Shown: positions 7,436-28,818 of the stretch, piece after piece
How the letters are laid out: every line of letters starts with the position of its first letter
Position numbering within the stretch: the stretch's first letter is position 1
DNA from: a candidate division WOR-3 bacterium
Lineage (GTDB): Bacteria > Hydrothermota > Hydrothermia > B15-G9 > WFZT01
Reading direction: 5' to 3'
Length of the DNA: 34,014 nucleotides
Assembly: GCA_027053075.1 (NCBI GenBank)
Contig: JALUEE010000085.1
Coordinates: forward strand, 1-34,014
Notes under the pieces: model-generated
What the model was told of the DNA's origin: nothing
What the model saw: only the letters and a program-made list of their open reading frames with translations
Database searches by the model: none
Translations under genes and position numbers: made by a program

Positions 7436-8478
7436 ATCTATTGCTTGCACTTGTATTTATAATTGGAAATCCCATCAAATTTCAGGGATCAAAACTTATT
7501 TTCAATCACTCATCCATCAAGGTAAACACCCAGGACCTCATTTTCTCACCTTCTATGAGCTTCGTGGCATTTATTCAGAATGGAAACCTATCAGTTTACA
7601 ACTCTGATGGAAAGCTCGTCAGGAAAATTTTAATTGAGGGAGAAAATCTTCCGAGCATAAAGCTGATGGATGACGGTAGCATGGCCGTTTTTTATCTTGC
7701 CGTGTACAACCTGATTGTCTATGATGGAGCGGGCAAAATCAGACTCTACTTCAGACCTCGCGGAAATTACTTCTACTATGAATCATACTCGGACTTTGAT
7801 CAAAATGGCAAATTTACTGCACTTGCTTACAAGAAAGACAACAACTCGCATCTCGTTGTGTTCAAGAATTTCCAGAAAAAGTTCACCAAAATTTTTAAAA
7901 ATTACCTGCCGGCCAGAGTATGGGTAAGAGGTTCAAGTATCTTTTTGAGATTGTACCGGGTAGAGGATAATCATGTGACCAGCGATTTTGTTTTGATGCT
8001 CGACTCCAATGGGAAAATGGTCAGAAAATTTGAGATTCCAAAAGTAAACTTCGTGGATAAACAAGGAAACCTGATTGCCCTCGCTTCTAAAAGAGAAGTT
8101 TACATTTTTCAGAGTGGTGAGAGAAGCTCTATCACAGGTATAAAAGAAAATTTATCCCCTTTCCCAACCGCTTCCCACGCACGAAGTGCGTGGGGGGCGG
8201 AGAAAGGTGGGGGGATTTCCTCTAAAAAATCCGTAAATTCAGGCGTCCGCTTCTCCTTTGAAAAAATAATCTATGATGTGAAAATCCACAAAGGCAGAGT
8301 TTACATCATCATAGGCGAGCCAAATCGGAGAAAGACCACCAACCCCGAAATCTATGAAATCTCAGAAAAGCCTACAAAGATTTTAAATTTAGATGGTACC
8401 TACCTTTACCCTCATTTCTATGAGTCTGATGGTAAACTTTACTTTTTAACCGAAAAGGGGGATATCCATGAGCTTTAA
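7432..8478 (+). CDS. Hypothetical exported beta-rich (propeller-like) protein with an in-frame palindromic repeat insert
   Basis: 348 aa ORF overlapping thiD and the next gene. Hydrophobic N-terminus and repeated short beta-strand pattern. Confidence 0.75.
   Translation: MNLLLALVFIIGNPIKFQGSKLIFNHSSIKVNTQDLIFSPSMSFVAFIQNGNLSVYNSDGKLVRKILIEGENLPSIKLMDDGSMAVFYLAVYNLIVYDGAGKIRLYFRPRGNYFYYESYSDFDQNGKFTALAYKKDNNSHLVVFKNFQKKFTKIFKNYLPARVWVRGSSIFLRLYRVEDNHVTSDFVLMLDSNGKMVRKFEIPKVNFVDKQGNLIALASKREVYIFQSGERSSITGIKENLSPFPTASHARSAWGAEKGGGISSKKSVNSGVRFSFEKIIYDVKIHKGRVYIIIGEPNRRKTTNPEIYEISEKPTKILNLDGTYLYPHFYESDGKLYFLTEKGDIHEL
8154..8216. repeat. Palindromic repeat inside a coding region
   Basis: Stem CCGCTTCCCACGCAC-GAA-GTGCGTGGGGGGCGG (8168-8200). 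Same GCAC-GAA-GTGC core as 16811-16837 and 28785-28813. Confidence 0.85.
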
Positions 8479-10432
8479 ACTAATTTTAACAATGATTCTC
8501 GCATACAACTGGCCCGTTTCCCCTGTTAACCAGCAGCACAATATATCTGGAACCTTTGGTGAGTTTCGGCATACTTTTTCGATCCACTATCACAATGGCG
8601 TTGATATACCAGCCCCGGAAGGGACACCAGTTTATGCAGTTTTAGGCGGCGAGGTGCTATGGATGGAATCGGGATTCAACGGAGGCATAAGGGTCGGAAG
8701 ATTTGCCTATATACACGTTATTCCGAGAAGTGACCTCCATCTTGGTGACCATGTGAATCAGGGAGAAGTTGTCGGCTATATCAACGAAGGTGCCCACGTG
8801 CATTTTAAAGACGGCGGTGGCGCTTCATCCTACCCTGTGAGGAATCCACTGATGCCAGATGCCCTGCAGCCCTTTGATGATCCATGGGGAACCAACGTTT
8901 ATCGCGTGGCATTCTTTTCCCATTATCTTGACCATCAGATGAATCCAGATTCACTCTGGGGATGGGTTGATATCGTCGCAGGTGCCCTTGATACAACAGG
9001 ATACGGGGAGGCTGCTCAAAACAACGGAATTTATGCCATCTGGTATGAGGTCCTGACCTCGGACACGGATAGTGTGGTTGTGGGCCCCCATCAGCTTGTT
9101 AGATTCGAATACCTGCCATCTACACCTGTTGAGGAAGTTTATTATATTCCATGGTCGAGCAATCAGAGCCACAATTACATTGTAACCAATTCTGCCTCGA
9201 AAAGTGTTGGTTATTTGAATTTGAATCGACTCCCCGGAGGCGATTACGTTCTTGCAGTTTATGCCACAGATACACGGGAAAATTACGATACCAATTTTGT
9301 AAGAATTCATGTTCTCCCACCAGATACAACTCTACCTGAGGTGCCGGTTTTGAAGACTCTTAAACTTTTGGATGACGGAAGAGCGATGCTAACGTGGCAA
9401 CGGGATACAGTTGACAATGACCTCGCTGGTTACAAACTTTACCTGAACTTCAACCATTATGGCTGGAATGAATGGGCTACGCTTTCACCCTCGGACACAT
9501 CTTTCACCACATCCCATCCTCTCGTTAATAACTGGGATTTTTATTTTAAGCTGGTGGCTTATGACAATATGGGGAATTACAGCGATTCCTCGACCACCTA
9601 CGTGGTGAGACGTACAAATTCACCTGACCGGGTTTTGATAGTTGATGGCAACGATATAGAAAGGGGGAATGATTACTTTGAAACCTACCTCACGGGAATT
9701 GAGAATATAACAGTTGAAACTGCATCCTGGCGGTCTTTGCCGGACCTTTCTAACTATAAGCTGGTTATCTGGAGCTCTGGAAGCGATACAACGGAGATTG
9801 ATACGGCCGCTTTAGAGAGTTTTATCTCAAATGGTGGAAAGCTTTTTATCAATGGCGCAAATATCGCAAAGAAATACAGGGACACAGGCTTTTTGCGTTC
9901 ACTTGGGGCTGTCTTTGTATCTGATTCTACAACCAATGATACAGTGGAGTCCCGACCATGTGGCCCATTTTATGACCTATCAAGCGTTATTTTGAATGGC
10001 CTCGAATCCGATGTAATAGACACAGTTACAGGTGGATTCGCTATTATGCGTTTTAGAGGAGATGGCACAGCAGGAGTGCTGAGTCCCGATTCAAACGCAA
10101 TTTTCTTCAGCTTTTCAATAGACCATGCCAGCAATGACAGTTTTAAAATCGGTGTACTTCGGAGGCTCATTGGTTTCTTTGGCGTAACAGAAGTTAGTGA
10201 AAGCTTCAATCCCGGTGATGAGGCATTCAAGCTCAGGTTCTCAATAAGCGGGAACGTCTATACAAATGCTAAAAAGCCAGAGATATTGAACATTTACAAC
10301 CCTGCTGGAAGGCTTATAAAAACTCTGCGAATCGAGCCCGGAATAAGAAATTATTCACTTGATCTGGGAAGTGGAGTGTATTTTTACAGAATTAAGAACG
10401 GGCCTGTGGGCAGATTCCTGATTGTTAAGTGA
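8468..10432 (+). CDS. M23-family metallopeptidase with FN3-like domain and T9SS-type C-terminal sorting domain
   Basis: HNGVD (HxxxD) and HVH (HxH). FN3-like LTW..DLAGYKLY..YFKLVAYD. CTD IYNPAGRLI..GVYFYRI..RFLIVK. Confidence 0.85.
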   Translation: MSFKLILTMILAYNWPVSPVNQQHNISGTFGEFRHTFSIHYHNGVDIPAPEGTPVYAVLGGEVLWMESGFNGGIRVGRFAYIHVIPRSDLHLGDHVNQGEVVGYINEGAHVHFKDGGGASSYPVRNPLMPDALQPFDDPWGTNVYRVAFFSHYLDHQMNPDSLWGWVDIVAGALDTTGYGEAAQNNGIYAIWYEVLTSDTDSVVVGPHQLVRFEYLPSTPVEEVYYIPWSSNQSHNYIVTNSASKSVGYLNLNRLPGGDYVLAVYATDTRENYDTNFVRIHVLPPDTTLPEVPVLKTLKLLDDGRAMLTWQRDTVDNDLAGYKLYLNFNHYGWNEWATLSPSDTSFTTSHPLVNNWDFYFKLVAYDNMGNYSDSSTTYVVRRTNSPDRVLIVDGNDIERGNDYFETYLTGIENITVETASWRSLPDLSNYKLVIWSSGSDTTEIDTAALESFISNGGKLFINGANIAKKYRDTGFLRSLGAVFVSDSTTNDTVESRPCGPFYDLSSVILNGLESDVIDTVTGGFAIMRFRGDGTAGVLSPDSNAIFFSFSIDHASNDSFKIGVLRRLIGFFGVTEVSESFNPGDEAFKLRFSISGNVYTNAKKPEILNIYNPAGRLIKTLRIEPGIRNYSLDLGSGVYFYRIKNGPVGRFLIVK

Positions 10433-11640
10433 TGTTTGAATACAGAGATGGAATTTTATACTGCGAAGACGTACCTGTGCCGGAGATTGCCAGGAAATAT
10501 GGCACTCCGGTTTATGTATATTCCAGAAGAGAAATTGAGCGGAGGATTTCGAAGTTAAAAAGTGTTTTCGGGGATGTCCCACACCTCATTGCATACTCGC
10601 TCAAGGCAAACAACAATCCGATACTTCTTAAAATTATTAAGGATGCCGGTCTCGGAGCGGATACTGTTTCTGTGGGAGAGGTGAAACTTGCCCTCGACCT
10701 TGGTTTTGAGCCCGAGAAGATTGTTTTTGCAGGTGTTGGTAAGAGAAGGTACGAGCTCGAGTTTGCCATTGAGAAGGGGATTAAATCAATTAATGTTGAA
10801 TCTTACGAAGAGCTTCTTCTGATTGACGAGATTGCGAAGGCACTTTCAAGGCCAGTTGCCGTGGCACTCAGGGTTAATCCAGATGTGGCACCAAAGACCA
10901 TTGATAAAATTGCCACTGCGAAGAAAACGAGTAAATTCGGGATCGATATGGAGACTGCACGGCACATTTTTTCGAATTTTAAGTCCGGGTATGTCCAGAT
11001 CAGAGGGTTACACGTCCACATTGGCTCGCAGATTTTCGAGTATGAGCCGTATATAGAGGCAGTTGAGAAAGTTGCTCCTTTGGTTAATGGAAAGTTGGAA
11101 TTTTTTGATGTAGGCGGGGGTTTTGGAGTTGATTACGAAGGCGATGGAAGGGAATTTGATTTTGAGGGCTTCAAAAAGTATGTGGTTCCACGAATCTTGG
11201 AGCTTGCAGACGAGGTGGTAACCGAGCCCGGGCGATTTATTATTGCGAAGTCATCAATTCTTGTGACTGAGGTTCTGTATCGAAAGCCTCATTTTATCAT
11301 TGTGGATGCGGGAATGAACGATTTTTCTCGTCCTGCTTACTATGGGGCACGGCACAGAATCGTGAATGTAACTTTGAAGGGCAGGAAAAAAGAGGCCGTT
11401 GGAGTAGGGGGGCCTGTGTGTGAGTCCACCGATGTTTTTGGTAAGGATTTTGAGCTTGAGATACCAGATAGGGGAGAGCTTCTTGCCATAATGGATACCG
11501 GTGCCTATGGGATGAGCATGGCATCAAATTACAACGCGCGTCCACGACCGGCCGAGGTCTTATGCGAAGGCAAATCTTACAGATTAATCCGACACCGCGA
11601 ACCCCTCGAAGACGTATTATGGCGAGGAGTACAAGAATAG
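10432..11640 (+). CDS. lysA: Diaminopimelate decarboxylase
   Basis: YGTPVYVY, YSLKAN (PLP lysine), HVHIGSQ, GGGFG, EPGR, GPVCESTD, GAYG..MASNYN. TGATG coupling; GTG 10429 is an alternative start. Confidence 0.95.
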   Translation: MFEYRDGILYCEDVPVPEIARKYGTPVYVYSRREIERRISKLKSVFGDVPHLIAYSLKANNNPILLKIIKDAGLGADTVSVGEVKLALDLGFEPEKIVFAGVGKRRYELEFAIEKGIKSINVESYEELLLIDEIAKALSRPVAVALRVNPDVAPKTIDKIATAKKTSKFGIDMETARHIFSNFKSGYVQIRGLHVHIGSQIFEYEPYIEAVEKVAPLVNGKLEFFDVGGGFGVDYEGDGREFDFEGFKKYVVPRILELADEVVTEPGRFIIAKSSILVTEVLYRKPHFIIVDAGMNDFSRPAYYGARHRIVNVTLKGRKKEAVGVGGPVCESTDVFGKDFELEIPDRGELLAIMDTGAYGMSMASNYNARPRPAEVLCEGKSYRLIRHREPLEDVLWRGVQE

Positions 11641-12172: not shown

Positions 12173-12607
12173 TTAGAGTATTCGTTTTAATAGGCTTTTA
12201 ATCTCCTCTATTTCTTTTTTAATCCCCATCTCGCTTTCATATCTACCCATGGCGTAGGATATCAATTTCAGGATGAATGAATTGAGGCTTATACCTTCCT
12301 CCTGAGCCAATTCGACAAGCTTTTTGTGTAAAGAAGGGGGTAGTCTCAGCAGAAGTCGTCCACTAAAATTCCTTTCTGCCATAGGTTCTGGCAATTTTTT
12401 ACCCCTTTTGATTGCAGTTTCTATGTAAAGTTCTTTTGCCTCGTCAAGCATTTTAAGGACTTCTTCTAAAGTTTCACCGTAAGTTAGACATCCGGGTAGC
12501 TCTTTTATCCAGGCAACATACCCCCCTTCCGGGTCAGGTTCAATTTCAATTCTGTAAGGTTTTTTCATATATTTTTTAACCAGTTCACGAATTTTTTTGT
12601 CTTTCAT
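12173..12607 (-). CDS. hicB: HicB-family antitoxin with RHH-type domain
   Basis: EGGYVAWIKELPGCLTYGETLEE and FSGRLLLRLPPSLHKKLVELAQEEGISLN. Confidence 0.93.
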   Translation of the reverse strand: MKDKKIRELVKKYMKKPYRIEIEPDPEGGYVAWIKELPGCLTYGETLEEVLKMLDEAKELYIETAIKRGKKLPEPMAERNFSGRLLLRLPPSLHKKLVELAQEEGISLNSFILKLISYAMGRYESEMGIKKEIEEIKSLLKRIL

Positions 12608-12872
12608 ACCAATCCTCCAGGTTTAAAATTTTTGCAACTTTTCTCAAATAAACTCGTTTAACTCTGCGGCCCTTGATGGTTGGAATTGTAATCTGGTCAT
12701 CTTCGTAATCCACTCCCTCAACGGGGTTGGTGAGAACAAAGATGTTATGACTTCCCTTTTTATTAACAAGTTCAAAACCAAATGCTTCAAGGATTTTTGC
12801 CAATTCATCGTATGAAAACTCTGCAGGAAATCTGAGTAATCTCTCAACCCTTTTTAAAAGTGATTTTCCCAT
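12585..12872 (-). CDS. hicA: HicA-family toxin (mRNA interferase)
   Basis: LEAFGF..KGSHNIF..ITIP. Basic 95 aa protein overlapping the hicB start. Confidence 0.92.
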   Translation of the reverse strand: MGKSLLKRVERLLRFPAEFSYDELAKILEAFGFELVNKKGSHNIFVLTNPVEGVDYEDDQITIPTIKGRRVKRVYLRKVAKILNLEDWYERQKNS

Positions 12873-17138: not shown

Positions 17139-19487
17139 ATGATTGCAACAGCTCTTTTGGCCTTAAGTTTTACATTTACCCCACCACCATCTATTCACAA
17201 AATCCAGTATGAACAGTATAAAAATTTCAAGTTGCCTGATGTTGGCAACCAGGTTCCAAAGATCCCCCTCCAGCCCCGTATGAAAAGCCTGTACAAAACA
17301 GTCTATGGGTTTCTGCCCTACTGGCAGCTCTCAAGCTACACATTAATTCACTGGGACCTTATTAGTCATCTTGCAGCATTTGGCATTGAGTTAGACGGTA
17401 ATGGTAATGTTACAAACAGGCATGGATGGGTCTCCAACTGGGCAGCAGTGATAGACTCTGCCCATGCGCATGGAGTGCATGTCCATCTGGTTATAATTAT
17501 TTTTAACAGCGACAACATTCACAGCATTTTGACCAATCCAACAGCACGGCAGAATGCAATAAATACCATCAAAAACGAAGTATTGAACGGACAGGTTGAA
17601 GGAGCCAATCTTGACCTTGAAGTTCCCTACTCCTCAGATAGAAATGCTCTCAATAACTTTGTAACAATGCTCCATGATACCCTTCAGGCACATGGTAAAG
17701 AGCTTACAATCTGTGTTACCGCTGTCAACTGGAACGATCGATTTGACGTTGCCACACTTGCAGCAAATACCGAAGGTCTCTTTATCATGGGATATGACTA
17801 TTTCTGGAGTGGCAGTGGGACAGCCGGCCCGGTTTCTCCCCTTACAGGTTATACTTACAACGTAACAAGCACTGTAAACTATTACGTGGCAAATTCCAAT
17901 GGCCATCCGGAAAAAATCATTCTTGGTGTGCCTTATTATGGCTATAAATGGCCGACATACTCTGATGCCCCGGGTTCGGCCACACGAGGTCGTGGCCGTG
18001 CTGTCTTTTACCAGCAGGCGATCTCAGAAGCCCAGTCTTACGGTCTCCTATGGGATGATTACTCCCAGACTCCATGGTACAGATACTATGTTAATGGTGA
18101 TGGATGGTATCAGACCTGGTTTGATAATGATTCAAGTCTCGGCTTGAAATGGGACCTTGTAAACAATGCCAACATTCAGGGCACAGGAATGTGGGCCCTT
18201 ACCTATGATGGCACAAGAAGTGAACTCTGGAATGAGCTTGCTCGCCATTTTGCCCATGGGACTCCCCCGGGACAGCCATCGGGCTTTATGGTTAGATTGA
18301 CCGGACCCAATAAAATTCAGCTTGAATGGTATCCTGACAGCGGAGCGACTTATTATGATGTTTACATGAGCACAGACGGTGAGAATTTCAGCTACTACAC
18401 GACCACCACAGGGCCATCATTTCAGGATAGAAATGTTCCCGCTGGAGAGATGAGGTTCTATAAGGTGAGAGCGGGCAATCCCTTTGGCGTATCTGGATTT
18501 ACAGAAGTACTCGGTGCAGTGTCTTCCACTTCACCCAATAATGTTTTGATTGTGAATGGATTCGACCGAGTGGGAGGGACTCATAACACATTTGACTTTA
18601 TCAGAGAGCATGGAATTGCAATGCACGAGATTGGGGCCAGATTTAATTCTACATCCAATGAAAGAGTAGAGGATGGTTCGGTTAATTTGACAGACTATCA
18701 AGCAGTTGACTGGATTCTTGGTGAGGAGGGAACTTCTACGCAATCGTTCTCTCCTGCGGAGCAGACAGCAGTTGAAGCCTACCTTGAGGCCGGCGGTAAG
18801 CTTTTTGTATCCGGCTCCGAGATCGGTTACGATCTCTGGGAAAGAGGGGATTCTACTGACCATCTCTTTTATCACAATTATCTCAAGGCCAATTATCTCG
18901 GTGACGACGCCGGCACCTATTTCGCAGTTGGAACAGCGGATGGCATTTTTAACGGTCTGGATACCCTGCAGTTTGATGATGGTAGATGGCACTACGATGT
19001 GGATTATCCCGACGGAGTAGGGCCTTATGGCGGGTCGGTCTCAAGTATGGTTTATGTCGGTGGAACAGGATGGTCAGCTGGCATTCAGTATGAAGGTACT
19101 TTCGGGAATAGTTCCACTCCGGGGAAGCTGGTTTACCTGGGATTCCCTTTTGAGTCTATTTTGAATCACTATTTGAGGAAAATGGTGATGTATAGGGTGC
19201 TGAGCTATTTTGGTCTCAATGTGTATGTCGCCGAGGGCTCTTCTCATTTAACGAGTGGGATAAAACTCTATCCCAATCCTGCCGGAAGGACTCTTTATGT
19301 CAGTTTACCTGCCAATGCCAGAAAGGTAGAAGTGTATGATATATCTGGCAGAAAGATTGTGTCTAAATGGGTTAGAGGAAACTCTACGGTTTCTCTCGAC
19401 TTGAAAAATCTACCTTCCGGGATTTACCATTTAACAGTTAAGAACCGCGATGGTTCTTTGAAAACATCCCGCTTCATAAGAAGATGA
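17139..19487 (+). CDS. Glycoside hydrolase family 18 protein with FN3-like domain and T9SS-type CTD
   Basis: GFLPYW, GANLDLE (DxE), IMGYDY, KIILGVPYYG, GMWAL. FN3-like segment. CTD LYPNP..VYDISGRKI..LPSGIY. Confidence 0.9.
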   Translation: MIATALLALSFTFTPPPSIHKIQYEQYKNFKLPDVGNQVPKIPLQPRMKSLYKTVYGFLPYWQLSSYTLIHWDLISHLAAFGIELDGNGNVTNRHGWVSNWAAVIDSAHAHGVHVHLVIIIFNSDNIHSILTNPTARQNAINTIKNEVLNGQVEGANLDLEVPYSSDRNALNNFVTMLHDTLQAHGKELTICVTAVNWNDRFDVATLAANTEGLFIMGYDYFWSGSGTAGPVSPLTGYTYNVTSTVNYYVANSNGHPEKIILGVPYYGYKWPTYSDAPGSATRGRGRAVFYQQAISEAQSYGLLWDDYSQTPWYRYYVNGDGWYQTWFDNDSSLGLKWDLVNNANIQGTGMWALTYDGTRSELWNELARHFAHGTPPGQPSGFMVRLTGPNKIQLEWYPDSGATYYDVYMSTDGENFSYYTTTTGPSFQDRNVPAGEMRFYKVRAGNPFGVSGFTEVLGAVSSTSPNNVLIVNGFDRVGGTHNTFDFIREHGIAMHEIGARFNSTSNERVEDGSVNLTDYQAVDWILGEEGTSTQSFSPAEQTAVEAYLEAGGKLFVSGSEIGYDLWERGDSTDHLFYHNYLKANYLGDDAGTYFAVGTADGIFNGLDTLQFDDGRWHYDVDYPDGVGPYGGSVSSMVYVGGTGWSAGIQYEGTFGNSSTPGKLVYLGFPFESILNHYLRKMVMYRVLSYFGLNVYVAEGSSHLTSGIKLYPNPAGRTLYVSLPANARKVEVYDISGRKIVSKWVRGNSTVSLDLKNLPSGIYHLTVKNRDGSLKTSRFIRR

Positions 19488-19524
19488 CCAGCCAATCTTT
19501 TCCAGAAAATAAAAGGAGGTGTTT

Positions 19525-20061
19525 ATGAGAAGGTTGCTGTTAACTATATTTATCTTTTCCACCCTGGTGTACGTAACAGGGTGTAAGGAATCAATAAAAG
19601 ACCCGGAGGATGGCTACTTCAAGGGCCGTGTTGTTGATACCTCCGGAAATCCCATTGATAGTGTCCGCGTAGCAACATTCCCACCTCATATGTCAACCTA
19701 CACAAATTCCAATGGTTACTTTGAGTTAAGAGCATTCCCACGTGTTTACAGACTTGACCTTAGAAAGGGAAAGTTTTTCGTTACAAGGGTTGAGACCGTG
19801 GGCGGAGAAATCGATACGGTTGAGATAGGAATAATCGCATCTCAGACTCGTGACACAACATATATGAGTATTGATACAGTTGGAGGGACCGTGATAGAAA
19901 CAACTGTAGTTCGTACAGTGATTGACTCCTGTTTTTACCATTCAGTTTCAACTGATTCTGTGGATTTGCAACCCGGTCAGACCTACGATTATGGAAATAT
20001 AACTATGGATACAGCAAGAATATACATTGAAACCGTAGATACGACGGTAGATACCCTGTAA
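19525..20061 (+). CDS. Lipoprotein with carboxypeptidase-regulatory-like domain
   Basis: Lipobox VTG-C and KGRVVDTSGNPI..TYTNSNGYFEL. ATG 19525 follows AGGAGG. Confidence 0.78.
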   Translation: MRRLLLTIFIFSTLVYVTGCKESIKDPEDGYFKGRVVDTSGNPIDSVRVATFPPHMSTYTNSNGYFELRAFPRVYRLDLRKGKFFVTRVETVGGEIDTVEIGIIASQTRDTTYMSIDTVGGTVIETTVVRTVIDSCFYHSVSTDSVDLQPGQTYDYGNITMDTARIYIETVDTTVDTL

Positions 20062-20080
20062 TGAAAAAGGAGGAATTTTT

Positions 20081-22705
20081 ATGAGAAAACTTTTGTTATC
20101 TCTCTTGTTCATAGGGGCACTATTTGCCGGCGAAACAGGTAAAATCGCCGGTAGGGTAGTGGATGCCTCGACAGGTGAACCACTTCCAGGAGTTAATGTG
20201 GTGATTCTTGGGACCACTATGGGAGCATCTACTGACCTTAATGGATACTATTTCATTATTAATGTGCCACCCGGTGTTTATAGTGTTAAAGCCTCAATAA
20301 TTGGTTATACCCCCGTTATTCAGGAAAGTGTTGTGGTACATACTGACCAGACTGCCTATGTAAACTTTAAATTAAAGCAGACCGTTATAAAGGCAAAACC
20401 TGTGGTTGTTAAGGCGAAACGAGAGATAGTGAAGAAAGACGTGACTGCGAGTGTTATCACAACAGATAAACAGGATTTGCAGAAAATACCGGTAGAAACA
20501 GTTACCGGTATTATTTCGATGAAAGCTGGAGTTACCACCGGCCCTGGTGGGGCTATCCACGTTAGAGGTGGCCGCTCCGGTGAGGTTGCCTATCTAATTG
20601 ATGGAATACCAATTGTGGACCCTTATTTGAACGGCCTTGCCGTTTATGTTCCTACAAACATCATTAAGGAAATGGAGCTTGTTGCGGGAACATTTAATGC
20701 TGAGTACGGTAACGCGATGTCTGGAGTGGTTAATATTGTTACTGATGAGGGTTCAAACAAGTTTAGAGGGTCAATAAGTGCATATGTAGGAGACAGGCTC
20801 AGCAACCACACAAGAATCTTTGAGCACATTGACCAGTTTGATTTAACTAATGATAAAGATATTCGCTGGAACATTTCTGGCCCACTACCATTTAAAAACA
20901 AATTGACCTACTACTTCGGCGGCAGATACTATAAAACTGCGGGATGGCTGTACGGCATAAATTACTATCTACCCACAGATACACGATATGATACAATAAT
21001 TCATGGACATGGTGATGGCTCATATGTGGCGATGAACCCGGAAACTGAGAATCTCTGGAATTTTAAACTTACTGCGAGACCCACAAGTTCTATTAAAGTA
21101 TCTCTTACAAATTTGTACACTTATCTGCATTACAAGAGCTATATCCATTCGCTGAAATGGGAACCTCTTGCCACTCCTCATCATCTTAAAGAAGCCTGGC
21201 AGAGCATTTTATCTCTCAATCAAATACTTTCGCCAAAAACCTTCTATTCATTCAGATTGAGCTATTACTGGTCACAGTTACGCCAGTTTGTTTATGATTC
21301 ATATTACTGTCTGGGATACAAATTCCCATATTGGGGATACTTTGTTTCAGCCCATCAGTTTAGAAGAGGTGGAGTTTCAACTTCATGGTTTAAGAGATAC
21401 ACAAAGAGTTATGTGGCAAGATTTGACATTACAAGTCAGATTACTCACATCCACATGATCAAAACCGGAGTCCTGTTTACAAAGTATGACCTATACAGAT
21501 TTTCAATGAGTGTTCAGAAACCTGATACCACTCCACCTGCATTGCCTGTGAGGGATACTATTGGGGCTCTGGATCATTATCTTCACCATCCTATTGAGTT
21601 CTCTGCTTATATTCAGGACAAGATGGAATTCAAGGACATGGTTGTAAACGCAGGAATCCGCTTTGACTGGTATAACCCGAAATGGAAAACATGGGTAGAT
21701 GATTCAGCTCCATCGCCAATGATATGGGATTCCACAAGAGGACCGTTCCCTGGATATAAAGAGGTCAGTCCTAAGTGGCAGCTTTCACCCAGAATTGGAA
21801 TAGCTTTCCCTATCTCAGCTTCAGGAATTTTCCATTTTTCATATGGTCATTTCTTCCAGATTCCGCCTTATTATTACCTATACAGGAACTCTGGATTCAA
21901 ATGGGCTGAATCAGGTGGTAGACTTCTTACTAACAGGACCATCATGGGGAATGCAGATCTTAAGCCACAAAGAACTGTGGCATACGAAGTAGGGTTCAAA
22001 CAGGCACTTAGTGATAACTTTGGTCTCGAGGTCATTGGCTATTACAAAGACGTAAGAGACCTTTTGTCAACTAAACTCGTACCCACGTATGTTTCGGGTG
22101 ACCACTATATGGTCTATTCTAACAGGGATTATGCGAATATAAGGGGTATTTCCTTCTATCTGAAATTCAGGAATCTCGGTATGTTCTCAGGTGAGATTGA
22201 TTACACCTATCAGATAGCCGAGGGTTCAAACTCTGGTCCAAGAGACCTTTTCGCAGATCTTAGACACGGTTATGAACCACCAAAGTACATGGTCCCTCTT
22301 GATTGGGATGAGAGACACAGGATCAACTTTACTATCACGATGAATCAGCCTAATCAGTGGACAATTTCACTTACGGGAACCTACGGAAGTGGTCTGCCCT
22401 ACACGCCAACTGATACAACGGGTCAAGCACTTAGAGGTGGCGAGAATTCAGGAAGAAAGCCACCCACATATAACTTTGATCTAAGTGCTGCTAAATATAT
22501 GAAATTCAGAAATCTGAGATATACCCTTTCACTAAAGGTATACAACCTGCTTGACACCAAGAATGAAATCCTCGTGTACACCGATACTGGAAGGGCAACA
22601 TACACTCACCAGACAAGACCCACCGCTGATCCTGGCTATTACATAAGACCTTATTACTTCAGTCCACCGAGGCTCGTGAAAATAGGCCTTTCAGTTAACT
22701 TTTAA
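20081..22705 (+). CDS. TonB-dependent receptor with N-terminal carboxypeptidase-like domain
   Basis: TGKIAGRVVDASTGEPLPGVNV; plug HVRGGRSGEVAYLIDG..FNAEYGNAMSGVVNIVT; SPRIGIAFP; NADLKPQRT; C-terminal GLSVNF. Confidence 0.93.
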   Translation: MRKLLLSLLFIGALFAGETGKIAGRVVDASTGEPLPGVNVVILGTTMGASTDLNGYYFIINVPPGVYSVKASIIGYTPVIQESVVVHTDQTAYVNFKLKQTVIKAKPVVVKAKREIVKKDVTASVITTDKQDLQKIPVETVTGIISMKAGVTTGPGGAIHVRGGRSGEVAYLIDGIPIVDPYLNGLAVYVPTNIIKEMELVAGTFNAEYGNAMSGVVNIVTDEGSNKFRGSISAYVGDRLSNHTRIFEHIDQFDLTNDKDIRWNISGPLPFKNKLTYYFGGRYYKTAGWLYGINYYLPTDTRYDTIIHGHGDGSYVAMNPETENLWNFKLTARPTSSIKVSLTNLYTYLHYKSYIHSLKWEPLATPHHLKEAWQSILSLNQILSPKTFYSFRLSYYWSQLRQFVYDSYYCLGYKFPYWGYFVSAHQFRRGGVSTSWFKRYTKSYVARFDITSQITHIHMIKTGVLFTKYDLYRFSMSVQKPDTTPPALPVRDTIGALDHYLHHPIEFSAYIQDKMEFKDMVVNAGIRFDWYNPKWKTWVDDSAPSPMIWDSTRGPFPGYKEVSPKWQLSPRIGIAFPISASGIFHFSYGHFFQIPPYYYLYRNSGFKWAESGGRLLTNRTIMGNADLKPQRTVAYEVGFKQALSDNFGLEVIGYYKDVRDLLSTKLVPTYVSGDHYMVYSNRDYANIRGISFYLKFRNLGMFSGEIDYTYQIAEGSNSGPRDLFADLRHGYEPPKYMVPLDWDERHRINFTITMNQPNQWTISLTGTYGSGLPYTPTDTTGQALRGGENSGRKPPTYNFDLSAAKYMKFRNLRYTLSLKVYNLLDTKNEILVYTDTGRATYTHQTRPTADPGYYIRPYYFSPPRLVKIGLSVNF

Positions 22706-22722
22706 AGGAGGAGTAAAGAAAA

Positions 22723-25700
22723 ATGAAAAAACTTTTACTTGCCATATTTGTTTTTGGGATGGCCTATGCTGGTATACCTTACCAGAAGTTCCTTCCCCCG
22801 GATGTGAAGCTTACTCCAGCACAAATTGGTAAGGGAGCTGATCTTAAGGGGCATGCAGATCGTAGAGCGGGTATTCATGATGGTAACAGAATTAGACTAA
22901 AGTTCTTTAACACTCTTTCGATAGGAGGTCCTGATAGAGTTAATCCGTGGCCAAGGCTTGAGTGGCCTGCTGGTTCTGGACATGAATACATTTATGAGAT
23001 TGGCCCTTTATTTGGCGCCCGTGTGAAAGCATACGACCCTAATACTCAGGACTCAGTGTGGATCAGCATACTTGATGATCCTATTCAAGATGGTGGTGAT
23101 GAAGACTTTGAGCCCTTACCAGGTTACTTTAATCCCAATAAGCAGAGTGTAGCTTTCTCGGATAAGGATACCCTATGGCCTCAAACATGGCCCCCGTTCG
23201 TCGGTATATTAGGAGACACTATAAGGAATCTTTCTGGTAGGTGGCCTGGGCAATTTGATTTTATCCCTTGGGATAGGAATGGTAATCCGATTCATGATTC
23301 AGTATCAGTCAATGTCGTTGCAGATCAGGAGAGTTATTTTGCTGCGACAGATTCTGCAAGTACAAAATTTTTGCCCGGTAACAATATGGGAAATCCGTAT
23401 TATGATCCCGGTAACAACATGCATGGCCTTGGATTAAAGGTGGTCGCAAGAGGTTATCAATGGACTGCTCAGCCGGTTCAGGATGTTATTGTCTGGGTAT
23501 ACGAGGTGACAAACCTTTCTGACAAAGATATTGACTCTATGGTTATTGGGTATTACACAGACGTTAGAATTGGTGGCCCCGGTTCTGACTTCCAGGATGA
23601 TATGTATGGATTCGATACCACTTCTAACATGGTGTACTTCTTCGATTATGACGGTTGGGGAAGAGGAGCAGACGGAAGGCCTTACAAGTGTGGCTGGCTC
23701 GGATTCAAATTTTTGGAGAGCCCTGGAAATCCATACGATGGTATTGACAATGACCATGATGGCATGATTGACGAAAGTCAGCATGATGGTATTGACAACG
23801 ATGGAGACTGGGATCCGACAAAAGACGATGTTGGAAGAGATGGAATACCTGGAACAGGCGACTATGGTGAAAATGATGGGCAGCCAACCCTGGGAGAGCC
23901 TAATTTTGAAGTAATGGATCCAGATGAAAAGGATGAAATGGGGTTGACATCGGTTCGTGATTTTGTGTATGGAACTGGAGGACTCTTTGCCGCGAATGAC
24001 TCAGCTATGATATCTATTATGAGACCAGGCGTCTACCATGTGGATAGAGGACCTGGTGATTTCGTTCTGGTCTTCGGCTCAGGTTTCTTCCCGCTGCATA
24101 AAGGGGAAACGCAGAGATTTTCTATTGCCCTTGTGATGGGAGCAGACTCTGTTGATCTTTATAAGCACGCCTTCAGTGCTCAGGTTATATTTAACAGAAA
24201 CTATCATTTCCCCAAACCTCCTGAGAAGCCGCAGGTCTGGGCGAGAACAGAGAGTGGAAAAGTACATCTATATTGGGATAACAGGGCAGAGCTTAATCCC
24301 GAATTTGAGGGGTATGCCATTTTCCGTAGTCAGGATAGAGGTGTAACCTGGGGGACTCCTATTACAGACGCTTTCGGAAGGATTGTTTATTGGAGACCTA
24401 TTGCACAGTTTGATAAAATTGACTCCATCACAGGACTTGCTCCTGTAGGGGTTGATGGAGCTTATTTCTATCTGGGTGATGATTCTGGCCTTAGGCACTC
24501 ATGGACAGATACAACGGTAGTTGACGGTGAACACTACTGGTACGCAGTCACAGCATATGCACCTGGTAATGATACACTTGGATTGCCACCGCTAATATCT
24601 TCTGTTTATCCGATAAATGCAAATCCGAGTGTGGTGCATGTAATTCCTAATGGTAATCCTATTGGTTATCACCCTCCACAGATAACCATTGATTCGCTAA
24701 ATTCAAACATTAATGGAACTGGACAGGTTGATTACATGGTTGTAACTCCAGAGGACATAAAGGATGCATCTTACTATATCAAGTTTGATACAACTGGAAA
24801 CGACACTACATGGTCTTTAATTAAAAATGTTAATGGTGTTGATAGCGTGCTAATTTCCAACAGTACTAAAATACATGGTGAGGATGATAACCCCATTGTA
24901 GATGGATTTAGAGTGTCAATTAATACTGATTCACTTGCACCTGATACTAACTATTTCGTGAGAGGCAACAGTAATTTCCATGTCCAGGTTTCTCTCGCCC
25001 GTGGTGGTATAAAGTACCCTGCTGACTATGAGATAGAGTTTGCTGACTCTGGAACTGTTCTCGATTCAGTTTTCTACAATAGTCCAACAAACAAAGCGCC
25101 TGTGAACTTTAGGGTCTGGAGAATAGAGGGTAAGTATCGCTATAGACAGGAAGTAGTATTTATTGATGGAGACCATGATGGGATAATTGCCAATCCTGCA
25201 GGAAGAGATGTTTTGTACCCTGTTCTTACTGACTCAACAGGAAGAATTGTAGCGCGAACATGGAAATTCACCTTTATGGGGCCCGGTACTGGAGCGATCC
25301 CACCGAATTCTGATAGCACCATTCTCTACCTTAAGTTCCACAAGCCATTTACTGAAAGAGACACCATTTACTTTGATACCCATGAGGGCACTACAAATGA
25401 AAACGACATTGTGAAAAATATGAACAAAATAAAAGTTGTGCCGAACCCATACATTCTTGTGTCTGCTTATGAACTCAAGGATCCAACTATTAGAAGAGGA
25501 AGAGGTGCCCGTGAGATTCACTTCATTAACCTACCCCCAGAAGCAACTATCAGAATTTACACTATAACAGGTGAACTGGTTGATGTGCTACATCATGTGC
25601 CAGGAGATCCAGAGTATGTGTCACCTTCTGTGCAGAAGTGGAATCTTTTGAATAAAGATAGTCAGGAAATTGCTTACGGAGTCTATATCTACCATGTGGA

Positions 25701-25761
25701 AGCTATGCTTAACGGTCAGGTAGTTGGAAAATACATCGGAAAATTTGCAGTAATTAAGTAG
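22723..25761 (+). CDS. Large exported protein with Asp-rich Ca-binding-like repeats, FN3-like domain and CTD
   Basis: Signal peptide. DGIDNDHDGMIDE/DGIDNDGD repeats. C-terminus IKVVPNPY..IHFINLP..IRIYTITGELV..GVYIYHV..KFAVIK. Confidence 0.85.
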   Translation: MKKLLLAIFVFGMAYAGIPYQKFLPPDVKLTPAQIGKGADLKGHADRRAGIHDGNRIRLKFFNTLSIGGPDRVNPWPRLEWPAGSGHEYIYEIGPLFGARVKAYDPNTQDSVWISILDDPIQDGGDEDFEPLPGYFNPNKQSVAFSDKDTLWPQTWPPFVGILGDTIRNLSGRWPGQFDFIPWDRNGNPIHDSVSVNVVADQESYFAATDSASTKFLPGNNMGNPYYDPGNNMHGLGLKVVARGYQWTAQPVQDVIVWVYEVTNLSDKDIDSMVIGYYTDVRIGGPGSDFQDDMYGFDTTSNMVYFFDYDGWGRGADGRPYKCGWLGFKFLESPGNPYDGIDNDHDGMIDESQHDGIDNDGDWDPTKDDVGRDGIPGTGDYGENDGQPTLGEPNFEVMDPDEKDEMGLTSVRDFVYGTGGLFAANDSAMISIMRPGVYHVDRGPGDFVLVFGSGFFPLHKGETQRFSIALVMGADSVDLYKHAFSAQVIFNRNYHFPKPPEKPQVWARTESGKVHLYWDNRAELNPEFEGYAIFRSQDRGVTWGTPITDAFGRIVYWRPIAQFDKIDSITGLAPVGVDGAYFYLGDDSGLRHSWTDTTVVDGEHYWYAVTAYAPGNDTLGLPPLISSVYPINANPSVVHVIPNGNPIGYHPPQITIDSLNSNINGTGQVDYMVVTPEDIKDASYYIKFDTTGNDTTWSLIKNVNGVDSVLISNSTKIHGEDDNPIVDGFRVSINTDSLAPDTNYFVRGNSNFHVQVSLARGGIKYPADYEIEFADSGTVLDSVFYNSPTNKAPVNFRVWRIEGKYRYRQEVVFIDGDHDGIIANPAGRDVLYPVLTDSTGRIVARTWKFTFMGPGTGAIPPNSDSTILYLKFHKPFTERDTIYFDTHEGTTNENDIVKNMNKIKVVPNPYILVSAYELKDPTIRRGRGAREIHFINLPPEATIRIYTITGELVDVLHHVPGDPEYVSPSVQKWNLLNKDSQEIAYGVYIYHVEAMLNGQVVGKYIGKFAVIK

Positions 25762-25773
25762 GGAGGACAGGAA

Positions 25774-26784
25774 ATGAAAAAATTCATTCTACTTTTAGCC
25801 TTTTTGGGATTGGGATTTTCACAGACAATCAGTAACACTGGGACAAAGGCTGCCCAGTTTTTGAAAATAGGCCCCGGTGCACGACCAGTGGGTATGGGAG
25901 AAGCCTTTGTTGCTGTTGCTGATGGCGCCCTTGCCACATACTGGAATCCAGCAGGACTTGCACAGACTACAGGATATTCCTATTTCTTTACTAATGCAAA
26001 ATGGCTTGCAGGAATCCAGTATAACTACCTTGCTTTTGCAGTACCCATTCCCAAACGTGGTGTTATCGGTGGATCCTTATCCTATCTTGGAACAGACAAT
26101 ATGGAAGTTACAACAGAAACGAATCCTGAAGGTACTGGTGAGTATTTTAGATATTCCGGGCTTGCCCTTGCTTTTAGCTATGGAAAAATGTTTACGGACA
26201 AATTTTCCTTCGGATTTAATGCGAAGTACATCTACGAGAAGTTAAAGCTTATGTCAGCTTCGGGAATGGCAGTTGATATTGGACTTAAATACCAGACAGA
26301 ATGGCATAAATTTACAATCGGAATGAACTTCCAGAACTTTGGAAACAAGATGAGATTGACCGGTGAGGATACAAGATTCATCTATTATCCTGACCCCAAT
26401 CGTGACCCCAATTCTCAGCCAAATGTAATTGCTGACCTCAGAACTGAATCTTATGATTTGCCTATGAGATTTCTTGTAGGAATTGCACTTGTACCATACG
26501 AGACGAAGTTTGCTAAAATGCTTCTTGCCATTGATGCTGTTCATCCAAATGATAACACCGAGTATATAAATATTGGTGCTGAACTTTCACTTGCCAACCT
26601 CGCTTATATAAGAATTGGTCGAGAGCACAACTTTATGAGAGATGCTGAAGGTGGATTTACATTTGGTGGAGGTGTTAAATATAGACGGCCGGGAACTCCT
26701 CTGAATTTCTCCATCGATTTTGCAATGTCAAACTATGGAAGATTGCAGAATGTGAAGTTCATTTCGGTGGGTTTGGCATTTTGA
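25774..26784 (+). CDS. PorV/PorQ-family outer-membrane beta-barrel
   Basis: AQFLKIGPGARPVGMGEAFVAVAD..YWNPAGL, amphipathic strands, terminal Phe. Confidence 0.9.
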   Translation: MKKFILLLAFLGLGFSQTISNTGTKAAQFLKIGPGARPVGMGEAFVAVADGALATYWNPAGLAQTTGYSYFFTNAKWLAGIQYNYLAFAVPIPKRGVIGGSLSYLGTDNMEVTTETNPEGTGEYFRYSGLALAFSYGKMFTDKFSFGFNAKYIYEKLKLMSASGMAVDIGLKYQTEWHKFTIGMNFQNFGNKMRLTGEDTRFIYYPDPNRDPNSQPNVIADLRTESYDLPMRFLVGIALVPYETKFAKMLLAIDAVHPNDNTEYINIGAELSLANLAYIRIGREHNFMRDAEGGFTFGGGVKYRRPGTPLNFSIDFAMSNYGRLQNVKFISVGLAF

Positions 26785-26853
26785 GCATGATAAGAAATCT
26801 GAAGGTAAAAGAAAAATTTCAGATTGTTAGATTTTCTGAGGTGACTAACGCCT

Positions 26854-26890
26854 ACCTTCTCCCCACATATGCTTTATGTGGGGAGAAGGT
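26854..26890. repeat. Palindromic repeat, perfect 16 bp stem
   Basis: ACCTTCTCCCCACATA-TGCTT-TATGTGGGGAGAAGGT. Confidence 0.85.
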
Positions 26891-26923
26891 GATGGTAAGT
26901 TACCAAATGCTCTATCGTGAGCC

Positions 26924-26952
26924 TTTACAGTTGGAAAGTTGGGAAATATAAT
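26924..26952 (+). promoter_or_regulatory. Sigma70 promoter of the FG-GAP gene
   Basis: TTTACA, 17 nt, TATAAT, then AAGGAGGT RBS. Confidence 0.7.
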
Positions 26953-26977
26953 AAAAATTAAAAAAGGAGGTATAAAT

Positions 26978-28762
26978 ATGAAGAAGTTGGTAGGTGTATT
27001 GGCAGCCCTCCTTCTGGTGGGTTCTCTGGCTGCAGGAGACGGGGATAATGTTTTCCGTCTCGCAACAACAGATCTGCAGAATGATGCGCTCTTTGCAGAC
27101 AGTGTGTATAACGAGTATCAGAGATCCATGGTAGTTGGTAGTGATCTTGACCAGGACGGAATGAAGGAGATTATCATAACAGATTACAGAACAGTGAGTG
27201 ATTCTCAGCACGGTAGAATCATAGTTTATGAGGTATCCGGTGACAACACGCTACGTCAGGCATGGGTTTACAACATGCCCTCTAATGGTTATTACTCCAA
27301 TGTTAGAAGTGTTGCCACAGGAGATCTTGATGGCAATGGCAGAGGAGAAATCATTGTTGCAGTGACAGGTGGCTCCGGTGACACTTCAGCTGCACATGTT
27401 GGCGTATGGGTCTTTGAGTGGGATGGAGTTTCCGGAAGTGACAACTATCAGCTCGTTGCGCAGATTAATGATTTTGCCACCTATGTTGATTCAACAGGAC
27501 AGGTTGTTTATCCCGATAGGTACAGATGTGAAGATATGGCTGTCGGAGATTTCGACAATGACGGAAAAGATGAGGTTCTCTGGGTGAATAACGGTGGTAC
27601 AGCATTCGATAACGCATACATATTCTCTATCGATGGAGAATTTTCTACCGGATTCTATTCAACCGTAGTTGAAACAGTCTTTAAACGTACCGAACTTGGT
27701 TTCGGTGGAAGTACAGCATCAGGATTTGGACCTGTTGATCTTGATGGCGATGGCAATCCTGAAGGTGTCATTACCATATGGAACCATGTGGGAGTTCAGA
27801 TATTCGAATCCGATGCCCCTGATCACTATGTTCTGAAATATCACGCAGAGGGACTTGATCCTGAAGACAGATATCCTTATGCAAAATCGGTTGGTGCATA
27901 TGACCTTAATGGTGATGGAGTAAAAGAACTTGTTATTGGTGCCCTCTTAAGAGGTAGAGTTCACATTCTCGAGCCGGTAGGTGGAGATGTGGACTCCATG
28001 GCACATTATATGCCTGAATGGACAGTTATTGACACTGACACGACAGGAGCAGTTGATACAACAGCATTATTCAGAGTCTATGGAATGAAGGCAGGTGACC
28101 CTGATCACGGACCTGGTCATGACAATGGAGACATCGTTTTGAGTGACCTGAACAAGCATATCTATGATATCGAGTACAACGGTGGTGACTTTGGAGATAC
28201 TGCCAGCTACACCGTGTATGACATTTATGATGTATTCCCAGCAGACACATTCATCACAACCGATTCTACAGGTGCCCCGGATACAACAGTATGCAGTTTC
28301 TATCCTGGTCCTACACTTGCACTTGGCAATGACCTCGACGGTGATGGTGCAAATGAAATACTTTATGGAACGTACGTTGGTCATCGTCCTCCTGATTCCT
28401 TCACAGTGCAGACCGGATTCCTCAATGTACTCGAGTTCAATGGTCTCGGCGTGAGCGAGGGCTGGAAGATTGTTGGTAACAAGCCCGTGGTGCTTTACCA
28501 GAACATGCCTAATCCGTTTGTAAACCATACTGCCATCAGATTTGCTGTCAGGAAAGCAGGTAATGTAGAAATTGCAGTCTTTGATCTCACAGGAAGAAAG
28601 GTTAAAGAACTCGCTAATAGAAGATTTGCTGCAGGAACATACTCTGTGAGCTGGAATGGTAGAAGCGAAAGCGGATCTGTCCTTCCTGCCGGTGTTTACT
28701 TCTACACCATCAAGTACAATGGAACGACTCAAACGACAAGAAAGCTCGTGATTTCGAGATAA
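26978..28762 (+). CDS. FG-GAP/VCBS-repeat beta-propeller protein with FlgD-like T9SS CTD
   Basis: Six clear D(L/F)(D/N)x(D/N)GxxE loops plus one degenerate. CTD QNMPNPF..FDLTGRKV..WNGRSESG..GVYFY. ATG 26978 follows AGGAGGT. Confidence 0.9.
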   Translation: MKKLVGVLAALLLVGSLAAGDGDNVFRLATTDLQNDALFADSVYNEYQRSMVVGSDLDQDGMKEIIITDYRTVSDSQHGRIIVYEVSGDNTLRQAWVYNMPSNGYYSNVRSVATGDLDGNGRGEIIVAVTGGSGDTSAAHVGVWVFEWDGVSGSDNYQLVAQINDFATYVDSTGQVVYPDRYRCEDMAVGDFDNDGKDEVLWVNNGGTAFDNAYIFSIDGEFSTGFYSTVVETVFKRTELGFGGSTASGFGPVDLDGDGNPEGVITIWNHVGVQIFESDAPDHYVLKYHAEGLDPEDRYPYAKSVGAYDLNGDGVKELVIGALLRGRVHILEPVGGDVDSMAHYMPEWTVIDTDTTGAVDTTALFRVYGMKAGDPDHGPGHDNGDIVLSDLNKHIYDIEYNGGDFGDTASYTVYDIYDVFPADTFITTDSTGAPDTTVCSFYPGPTLALGNDLDGDGANEILYGTYVGHRPPDSFTVQTGFLNVLEFNGLGVSEGWKIVGNKPVVLYQNMPNPFVNHTAIRFAVRKAGNVEIAVFDLTGRKVKELANRRFAAGTYSVSWNGRSESGSVLPAGVYFYTIKYNGTTQTTRKLVISR

Positions 28763-28784: not shown

Positions 28785-28818
28785 TGGCGGCGCGCACTTC
28801 GTGCGCGCCGCCATTTTT
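28785..28818 (+). terminator. Intrinsic terminator built on the repeat-family hairpin
   Basis: TGGCGGCGCGCAC-TTC-GTGCGCGCCGCCA followed by TTTTT, 22 nt after the stop. Confidence 0.8.

Follow-up and report, generated by a model that had tools for sequence, protein, structure and literature searches.

Can a TonB-dependent receptor of the outer membrane be served by a secreted, barrel-held protein in the place that SusD takes in SusC/SusD pairs? This question is raised by contig JALUEE010000085.1 of a candidate division WOR-3 bacterium, which we analyzed over its full 34,014 nucleotides (the window; contig C85 of the 2.44-Mb genome G000, which is 95% complete). Six genes run there in the same orientation on the plus strand from position 17139 to 28762, and encode a glycoside hydrolase of family 18 (GH18), a small lipoprotein, a TonB-dependent receptor (TBDR), a 1012-aa protein that we call the partner, a PorV/PorQ-family barrel and an FG-GAP repeat protein. 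The TBDR, partner and barrel genes form the trio, or cassette, considered here. Our analyses suggest, with a probability of roughly 0.55, that the locus is a SusD-free outer-membrane uptake unit that does the job of a SusC/SusD pair and imports peptidoglycan fragments. The cassette is real, widespread and apparently undescribed: we found no account of it in the literature searched, in which a table may still mention it, and it was absent from the accessible parts of PMC4793230, PMC12398890, PMC11495043 and bioRxiv 10.1101/2021.12.02.470905 and, by term look-up, from that of PMC6243061.

A receptor, a partner and a barrel in fixed order

The genes of the locus are separated by 37 nt (GH18–lipoprotein), 19 nt (lipoprotein–TBDR), 17 nt (TBDR–partner), 12 nt (partner–barrel) and 193 nt (barrel–FG-GAP), and each is preceded by an AGGAG(G) ribosome site. 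The first-pass annotation, made from the sequence alone, had given these genes, their places and strand and a spacing of 12 to 19 nt correctly, and the conservation of the TBDR–large protein–PorV order across the Fibrobacteres–Chlorobi–Bacteroidetes (FCB) group, which it had named as a check, was borne out as well. Specifically, among the best 80 of at least 726 confirmed stretches in a scan of GTDB genomes, the TBDR gene lay directly upstream of the partner gene in 68/70 loci that extend far enough upstream, the barrel gene directly downstream in 70/72, and both in 60/62; for the best 80 of 550 confirmed metagenome stretches, the corresponding counts were 67/67, 68/70 and 56/58. Taken together, 116/120 informative loci, which represent several lineages of the FCB group, had the trio order; these loci are kin and not independent draws. 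A chance neighborhood was rejected. The partner had 1702 homologs among 7995 scored candidates, and by their record titles the carriers of the cassette include members of the Marinisomatota, Calditrichota, Ignavibacteria, Kryptonia, Rhodothermia, KSB1 and Stahlbacteria.

The TBDR contains CarboxypepD_reg and Plug (PF07715) domains. Its AlphaFold2 model (predicted local distance difference test [pLDDT] 86, predicted template-modeling score [pTM] 0.86) had the solved TonB transporters PirA, PhuR and FepA as top Foldseek matches, and the plug lies inside a large beta-barrel, as in TonB-dependent transporters. The protein scored 79.6 bits on the SusC/RagA model TIGR04056, far below the cut-off of 368. 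The downstream barrel passed the PorV family model NF033709 (205 bits; cut-off 90), fell below both equivalog models (PorV, 76 of 250 bits; PorQ, 100 of 220 bits) and matched no PorP/SprF model, and the profile of its family matched Flavobacterium johnsoniae PorV (6h3i) with an E value of 2e-28.

The genome encodes three TBDRs of the window's subfamily, three proteins with a variant C-terminal domain (CTD) like that of the partner, and three close barrels. A further barrel gene, on contig C55, is more PorV-like, scoring 131 bits on the PorV equivalog compared to 76 for the window barrel. Because three receptors and three variant-CTD proteins are matched by three barrels besides this separate PorV-like gene, the cassette barrels look dedicated to their variant-CTD proteins, as the first-pass annotation had proposed. 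The second cassette (G000:C78:31320-39837) comprises a 1071-aa receptor, a 696-aa variant-CTD protein and a barrel, and is preceded by genes that we named ExbB/ExbD/ExbD/TonB-like from reading the sequence; its gene order recurs in G012, G014 and G025, similar receptors occur in most genomes of the class, and this cassette has the look of a housekeeping copy. In this genome, the third set falls into two parts, a receptor–barrel–lipoprotein group (C47:77037-81483) with a 7-nt overlap between its first two genes, and a variant-CTD protein 60 kb away (C47:141931-147084); the same parts are contiguous in G014 and G026. Elsewhere, the cassette or the partner–barrel pair is repeated in tandem (L059, L060, L074, L055 and L073), and at L200:1029-4769 (G176) partner and barrel share one 1247-aa open frame in which the tail lacks its last part and the barrel its first, owing either to gene fusion or to faulty assembly.

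No SusD lipoprotein follows the TBDR, as had been noted at first pass: the downstream protein is nearly all beta and lacks a lipobox. The SusD_RagB family (PF07980) was not found in the 95% complete genome, and SusD-like_3 (PF14322) was found in 0 of 31 related genomes; both models matched the positive control, Bacteroides thetaiotaomicron. Membership of the SusCD system was therefore rejected on two grounds, the receptor score and the lack of a downstream tetratricopeptide repeat (TPR) lipoprotein of the SusD family. The resemblance to SusC/SusD (RagA/RagB) nevertheless extends to a receptor whose N terminus carries a CarboxypepD_reg-like extension and whose gene precedes that of a single, constant partner, and to paralogs that group by substrate class and are surrounded by carbohydrate-active enzymes (CAZymes), LacI regulators and sugar transporters of the inner membrane. 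The differences are a receptor outside the SusC model, a partner that is all-beta, nonlipidated and equipped with a type IX secretion system (T9SS) tail where SusD is a TPR lipoprotein, and a third gene for a PorV-family barrel.

The catabolic setting was assessed by a Pfam scan of 186 plus-strand neighbors (at least 200 aa) of 36 chosen GTDB loci, with E cut-offs of 1e-8 and 1e-12. The neighbors included GH13, GH16, GH3, GH9, GH94, GH97 and GH130 enzymes, LacI regulators, sodium:solute symporters and sugar ATP-binding cassette (ABC) transporters, and no SusD family was among them. In other phyla, the cassettes are central in loci that resemble polysaccharide utilization loci (PULs) and have no SusD. 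Clades of the receptor and partner trees sort by neighbors across phyla (GH13/CBM20; GH94/GH144; CBM9/GH16/GH3; sugar ABC/GH63/GH130); SusC/SusD pairs likewise group by neighbor content. Substrate-specific catabolic embedding is thus a feature of the family, whereas the window itself offers GH18, FG-GAP and a more distant M23 peptidase only. In the alpha-glucan and sugar-ABC clades, the cassette often has a PPIC-type rotamase gene as its neighbor (L024, L025, L032, L033, L038 and L043; further L055, L063, L035, L041 and L048).

The partner protein and its probable anchoring tail

The partner as a whole matched no Pfam or NCBIfam family, including the Pfam glycoside hydrolases. Its AlphaFold2 model, based on 96 sequences (pLDDT 87, pTM 0.78), is almost entirely beta and is ordered into a supersandwich, an Fn3-like domain, a variable middle region and a tail. 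In a VIA-align search with the whole model as query, which hardly probed the domains after the supersandwich (Fn3, middle and tail), residues 44 to 495 matched the beta-supersandwich found at the N terminus of GH15, GH94 and GH116 enzymes (Z 17–20, root mean square deviation 2.8–3.7, 236–269 residues aligned), with weaker matches to GH174 (Z 13.7) and mutarotase-like chains (Z 12–13). Foldseek with the whole partner returned only weak matches to fibronectin-type Fn3/Ig chains, its sequence profile matched only PorU and one Fn3-like protein in the PDB, and the supersandwich met only unnamed clusters in the ESM Atlas. Because the model is almost all beta, the partner is predicted to lack the catalytic (alpha/alpha)6 barrel; without this helical domain and without a Pfam GH match, a GH15/GH65/GH94 glycosidase or phosphorylase was rejected. 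The partner is likewise no known stand-alone enzyme, an identity that the first-pass annotation had named as fatal to its proposal.

The last ∼115 residues form the CTD. A profile of 54 family tails matched only PorZ (5m11, E 0.0011) and PorU (6za2, E 0.0014) in the PDB; at E ≤ 0.01, 46/54 tails matched the PorZ model, 43/54 the PorU model and 21/54 the type A model TIGR04183, and no type B model (TIGR04131) was among the families matched. The window's own tail has no TIGR04183 match and was therefore classed as a variant CTD; a CTD had been predicted at first pass and is indeed present, but it is of the PorZ/PorU kind rather than ordinary type A. The PNPY motif and the terminal lysine are invariant in 102/102 partners, and position 1007 is Lys or Arg in 99/102. 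A lipobox-like motif occurs in 3/102 partners and not in that of the window, whose N terminus is hydrophobic by sequence, so that the protein carries both the signal peptide and the CTD of T9SS cargo.

In the T9SS attachment complex, the tails of PorZ and PorU are described as remaining uncut and bound to PorQ and PorV, respectively (PMC10202324, as far as the available text goes), and a lysine of RemZ is described in the available part of PMC10994853 as binding PorV. Lys/Arg1007 may be the counterpart of that lysine. PorZ–PorQ and PorU–PorV share with the cassette a CTD of this kind and a dedicated PorV-family barrel; in contrast, outside its tail the cassette passenger bears no relation to PorZ, a TBDR goes together with the pair, and a genome contains several paralogous copies. 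For type B CTD cargo, the gene for the cognate PorP/SprF shuttle barrel is directly downstream (PMC12618676, in the part available). The cassette has the same adjacency, but its tail fits type A-like models and its barrel belongs to the PorV family; with no type B tail and no match to a PorP/SprF barrel model, membership of the SprB/SprF type was rejected. Judged by these sequence models, PorZ–PorQ is the closer precedent, and the SprB/SprF comparison drawn at first pass gives way to it. An architectural precedent for a small barrel, a larger barrel and a surface protein is offered by the BAM machinery of Bacteroidota, in which, according to the accessible part of PMC12611786, the FadL-family barrel BamG packs on the larger barrel and anchors a surface protein. 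There, however, BamA provides the large barrel and the surface protein BamH is lipid-anchored as a lipoprotein, and the window barrel scored 29 bits on the BamG model (cut-off 250).

The T9SS translocon component SprA is encoded in the genome (G000:C86:90491-96082; TIGR04189, 473 bits compared to a cut-off of 200), SprA_N is present in 31/31 related genomes, and the genome contains 60 type A tail matches; the GH18 and FG-GAP tails are of the ordinary type A kind. The best PorU-model match among the proteins tested (C47, 1269 aa) was far below its cut-off. Under the uptake-unit reading, the partner would be exported by Sec and then pass through SprA with its cognate barrel as carrier; its uncut PorZ-like tail would be retained by that barrel, holding it at the surface; the supersandwich would capture substrate beside or over the TBDR; and fragments made by the secreted GH18 and M23 enzymes would be imported through the TBDR in a TonB-driven manner. 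Export and anchoring through tail and barrel is the step in which we place high confidence.

Columns conserved at ≥90% make up 24% of the Fn3 domain and 22% of the tail, compared to 13% and 4% elsewhere in the partner. Each of the genome's three variant-CTD proteins contains the Fn3 domain, which a type A-tailed paralog on contig C30 lacks. Because Fn3 and tail are the most conserved parts, common to the three cassette partners and absent from the stand-alone paralog, we infer that they serve for docking and that the supersandwich binds the ligand. Covariation analysis of 102 paired sequences (64 effective) gave no clear signal of contact: the top interprotein z was 12.5, between TBDR I712 and partner T595, compared to maxima of 9.8 to 11.4 after shuffling. 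FastTree trees of the TBDR (102 rows) and the partner (172 rows) have 70/99 splits in common, and mirror-tree correlations were 0.4 to 0.77; the latter are not taken as evidence of contact because co-inheritance explains them. On balance we lean slightly toward direct contact between partner and receptor, for which the first-pass annotation had proposed a role of the partner as lid or substrate-capture subunit; the contact would probably be made by the cassette-specific Fn3 domain, and the predicted supersandwich would bind ligand.

Substrate of the window copy and competing readings

The window partner falls within a 37-row clade of the 172-row partner tree (local support 98). Neighbors of the clade's cassettes include T9SS-tailed Amidase_2 and M23 proteins, NamZ, SpoIID/LytB, GHL10, D-Ala-D-Ala dipeptidase, M14 peptidase and NagB, an Ala-Glu-epimerase-like enolase (under the equivalog cut-off) and orthologs of the window GH18. 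With the peptidoglycan set defined as Amidase_2, NamZ, M23, SpoIID, GHL10, D-Ala-D-Ala dipeptidase, M14, GH18, NagB and Ala-Glu-epimerase-like genes, such neighbors were present in 20/37 clade loci compared to 0/135 outside, a contrast biased by the labels having been taken from the clade's own loci, and in 9/20 compared to 0/89 after collapsing at 70% identity. Ordinary CAZymes lay beside 1/37 clade loci compared to 57/135 others. The best PDB match of the window GH18 was YdhD (3cz8, E 3e-29); further GH18s, chitinases and YaaH ranked below it. Peptidoglycan is the target of GHL10 and of the YdhD/YaaH group. Within the class, a window-type partner is present in 17/64 genomes, and the same 17 have a full-length GH18 ortholog (five further genomes have its catalytic part only); the M23 protein has orthologs in 16 of these 17 and in 0/47 others, although GH18, M23 and cassette are mostly nonadjacent. 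In G162 all three are present, and none is found in its seven family mates. In G171 (L199), a single run reads lipoprotein–receptor–partner–barrel–FG-GAP–unknown–M23–lysA, its M23 being 36% identical to that of the window, so that the M23 protein is likely part of the same system. The 348-aa gene before the window M23 did not match the equivalent gene in L199 (E 0.34). The lysA gene comes after M23 in L199 and is close to the cassette in L166, yet its link to the system is weak, since the genome also encodes dapA and LysA may be purely biosynthetic. AnmK and NamZ-, NagB- and epimerase-like genes are also encoded. These data point to peptidoglycan fragments, set free by the secreted GH18 and M23, as the probable substrate, which had not been named at first pass.

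A number of observations weigh against this account. For the substrate, the unbiased Pfam scan found peptidoglycan neighbors at only 3/5 clade loci (0/31 others); the clade is one lineage, so its loci are not independent; 11/20 clade clusters lack a peptidoglycan gene, including the order-level kin L102–L104; the GH18 also matches chitinases in the PDB; and six family-f26 genomes have partner matches without a full GH18. NamZ is not tied to the cassette (37/64 class genomes; 0/5 in the cassette-bearing family f9), no MurQ scored above cut-off in the genome, dapA is present, and MurA is present, so that the cell is no N-acetylmuramic acid auxotroph. For the architecture, L201 has a partner beside FG-GAP and GH18 with no adjoining receptor or barrel, and the C30 paralog (G000:C30:36184-39189) has a supersandwich of 57% identity and a type A tail of the ordinary kind, but no Fn3 insert domain and no adjoining TBDR or barrel, so that the supersandwich can work apart from a TBDR; C30-like matches also occur in G004, G007, G009, G010 and G171. 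SusD_RagB matched in 3/5 cassette-bearing genomes of other phyla, and cassette and SusCD are thus not mutually exclusive. Finally, GldL, GldM and GldN were not found in the genome, and GldM was not found in five other cassette genomes, although no control genome matched in either search; the organism's T9SS may be reduced or differently powered. Of the core T9SS genes that the first-pass annotation had suggested checking, SprA is present, and these searches did not find GldL, GldM and GldN.

The partner could instead be a barrel-anchored surface binding protein like SusE/SusF, coexpressed with the receptor and forming no lid. The C30 paralog, the receptorless L201 and the fact that tree congruence is expected from co-inheritance alone speak for this possibility, which we nonetheless regard as unlikely, given the almost invariant gene order (116/120), the one partner per receptor in the genome and the highly conserved, cassette-specific Fn3 domain. 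Accessory binding proteins of PULs, in contrast, vary. An anchored surface enzyme whose supersandwich is catalytic and trims substrate before import would suit the GH174 and aldose-epimerase-like (mutarotase) fold matches and the invariant residues E203, D210, R243, W247 and E332. The best fold matches, however, are accessory N-terminal domains of GH15 and GH94, the catalytic barrel is missing, and a single family stands alongside starch, beta-glucan, beta-1,2-glucan and peptidoglycan loci, so that a binding or structural role fits better than one chemistry; an enzyme is accordingly quite improbable.

It is a little less probable still that the architecture is as proposed and that chito-oligosaccharides or peptides, rather than muropeptides, are imported. 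The GH18, with its chitinase matches, is the only hydrolase directly adjoining in the window, NagB suits any source of N-acetylglucosamine, and L141 has a peptide/nickel-type ABC transporter beside its cassette; but Amidase_2, NamZ, SpoIID, M23 and D-Ala-D-Ala dipeptidase target peptidoglycan and not chitin by their family descriptions, the secreted M23 co-occurs with the cassette across the class genomes, and the best GH18 match is YdhD. Least credible of all is a TBDR that works outward, aiding partner export or supplying TonB energy to a GldLM-less T9SS. A TonB-dependent transporter has reportedly been needed for protein secretion in one study, and SprA in 31/31 genomes, the 60 type A tails, the undetected GldL/M/N and the ExbB/ExbD/TonB-like genes ahead of the C78 copy would all agree with such a role. 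It could suit the C78 copy but hardly that of the window, and many paralogous cassettes sort by catabolic neighbors, with LacI regulators and sugar transporters.

The preferred reading, an uptake unit for peptidoglycan fragments, has a partial parallel in Tannerella forsythia, which according to the available part of bioRxiv 10.1101/2021.12.02.470905 salvages peptidoglycan with NamZ, MurT and AmpG and uses NamZ-type muramidases on foreign peptidoglycan; that part names no outer-membrane importer. Since the window organism has MurA, salvage would be nutritional and not obligatory, unlike in T. forsythia. More tentatively, and at somewhat below even odds, the cassette may be an import machine of three subunits, its lid anchored by the CTD rather than by lipid, that takes the place of SusCD as the main system in FCB lineages outside the Bacteroidia, and its window type a peptidoglycan utilization locus common to WOR-3, Marinisomatota and Rhodothermia, which could then feed on the cell walls of other bacteria. 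SusC/SusD pairs are the marker by which the diet of Bacteroidota is predicted, and because the cassette is unannotated, SusD-based tools overlook the uptake loci of Marinisomatota, Ignavibacteria, Calditrichota, KSB1, Rhodothermia and WOR-3. If the uptake reading is correct, the trio would be a new substrate-prediction marker for these abundant, mostly uncultured groups, would connect TonB transport directly with type IX secretion, and would provide an outer-membrane importer for peptidoglycan fragments, with a bearing on the recycling of bacterial necromass. Record titles of carriers include Rhodothermus and Melioribacter, genera with cultured members, which makes the cassette experimentally accessible.

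Other features of the window

The coordinates of the features are collected in the table.

Table. Features of the window and the evidence for each (residue numbers refer to the partner)
Feature	Position	Strand	Evidence or remark
Secreted M23 peptidase, type A CTD	8468..10432	+	Pfam M23, TIGR04183
Diaminopimelate decarboxylase LysA	10429..11640	+	TIGR01048 above cut-off
GH18 hydrolase, type A CTD	17139..19487	+	PF00704, PF18962; closest to Bacillus YdhD
Small lipoprotein, 178 aa, CarboxypepD_reg-like domain	19525..20061	+	Lipobox-like Cys20 in sequence; PF13620
TonB-dependent transporter, 874 aa, outside SusC/RagA subfamily	20081..22705	+	CarboxypepD_reg, Plug
Secreted partner protein, 1012 aa, unannotated family	22723..25761	+	
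Partner N-terminal beta-supersandwich with acidic repeat insert, residues 44–495, predicted ligand-binding	22852..24207	+	
Partner Fn3-like domain with conserved hairpin insert, residues 497–650, cassette-specific	24211..24672	+	
Partner variant T9SS CTD, PorZ/PorU-like, residues 897–1012	25411..25758	+	
Apparently dedicated PorV/PorQ-family barrel, 336 aa	25774..26784	+	NF033709, 205 bits
Hairpin, 17-bp stem, −31 kcal/mol	26853..26891	+	
Sigma-70-like promoter match for FG-GAP gene	26924..26952	+	TTTACA-17-TATAAT, 11/12 consensus bases
FG-GAP repeat protein, type A CTD	26978..28762	+	Recurring fourth member of the window's subfamily
Intrinsic terminator-like hairpin 3′ of FG-GAP gene	28785..28813	+	13 pairs, then T run

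The FG-GAP gene, taken at first pass for a mere flank, turned out to recur: an ortholog accompanies 22/37 clade loci compared to 2/135 others. The protein has no PDB relative, and its propeller met only generic FG-GAP clusters in the ESM Atlas. A second FG-GAP protein with a type A tail (G000:C33:28914-30665), 40% identical to that of the window, lies away from any cassette. The separate promoter proposed for the gene is supported within the genus, where both hexamers and their spacing are kept in 6/6 copies with a variable spacer sequence, and is absent in five copies from other families, in which the barrel–FG-GAP gap is 22 to 64 nt. The site is the best of 31 matches in all, a total equal to that of shuffled sequences (27.5 ± 5). 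The hairpin upstream of it lies within a 136-nt stretch present only in this genome and its nearest relative.

The small lipoprotein gene precedes the TBDR in 9 of the 10 class loci with upstream DNA and also in L199; none was seen outside the class, and a universal place in the cassette was rejected for this class-restricted gene. Between the M23–lysA block and GH18, two short minus-strand genes (12173-12872) resemble by eye a HicB/HicA-type toxin–antitoxin pair, and a transposase-like open reading frame, likewise recognized by eye, occupies positions 131-844 of the minus strand at the contig end.

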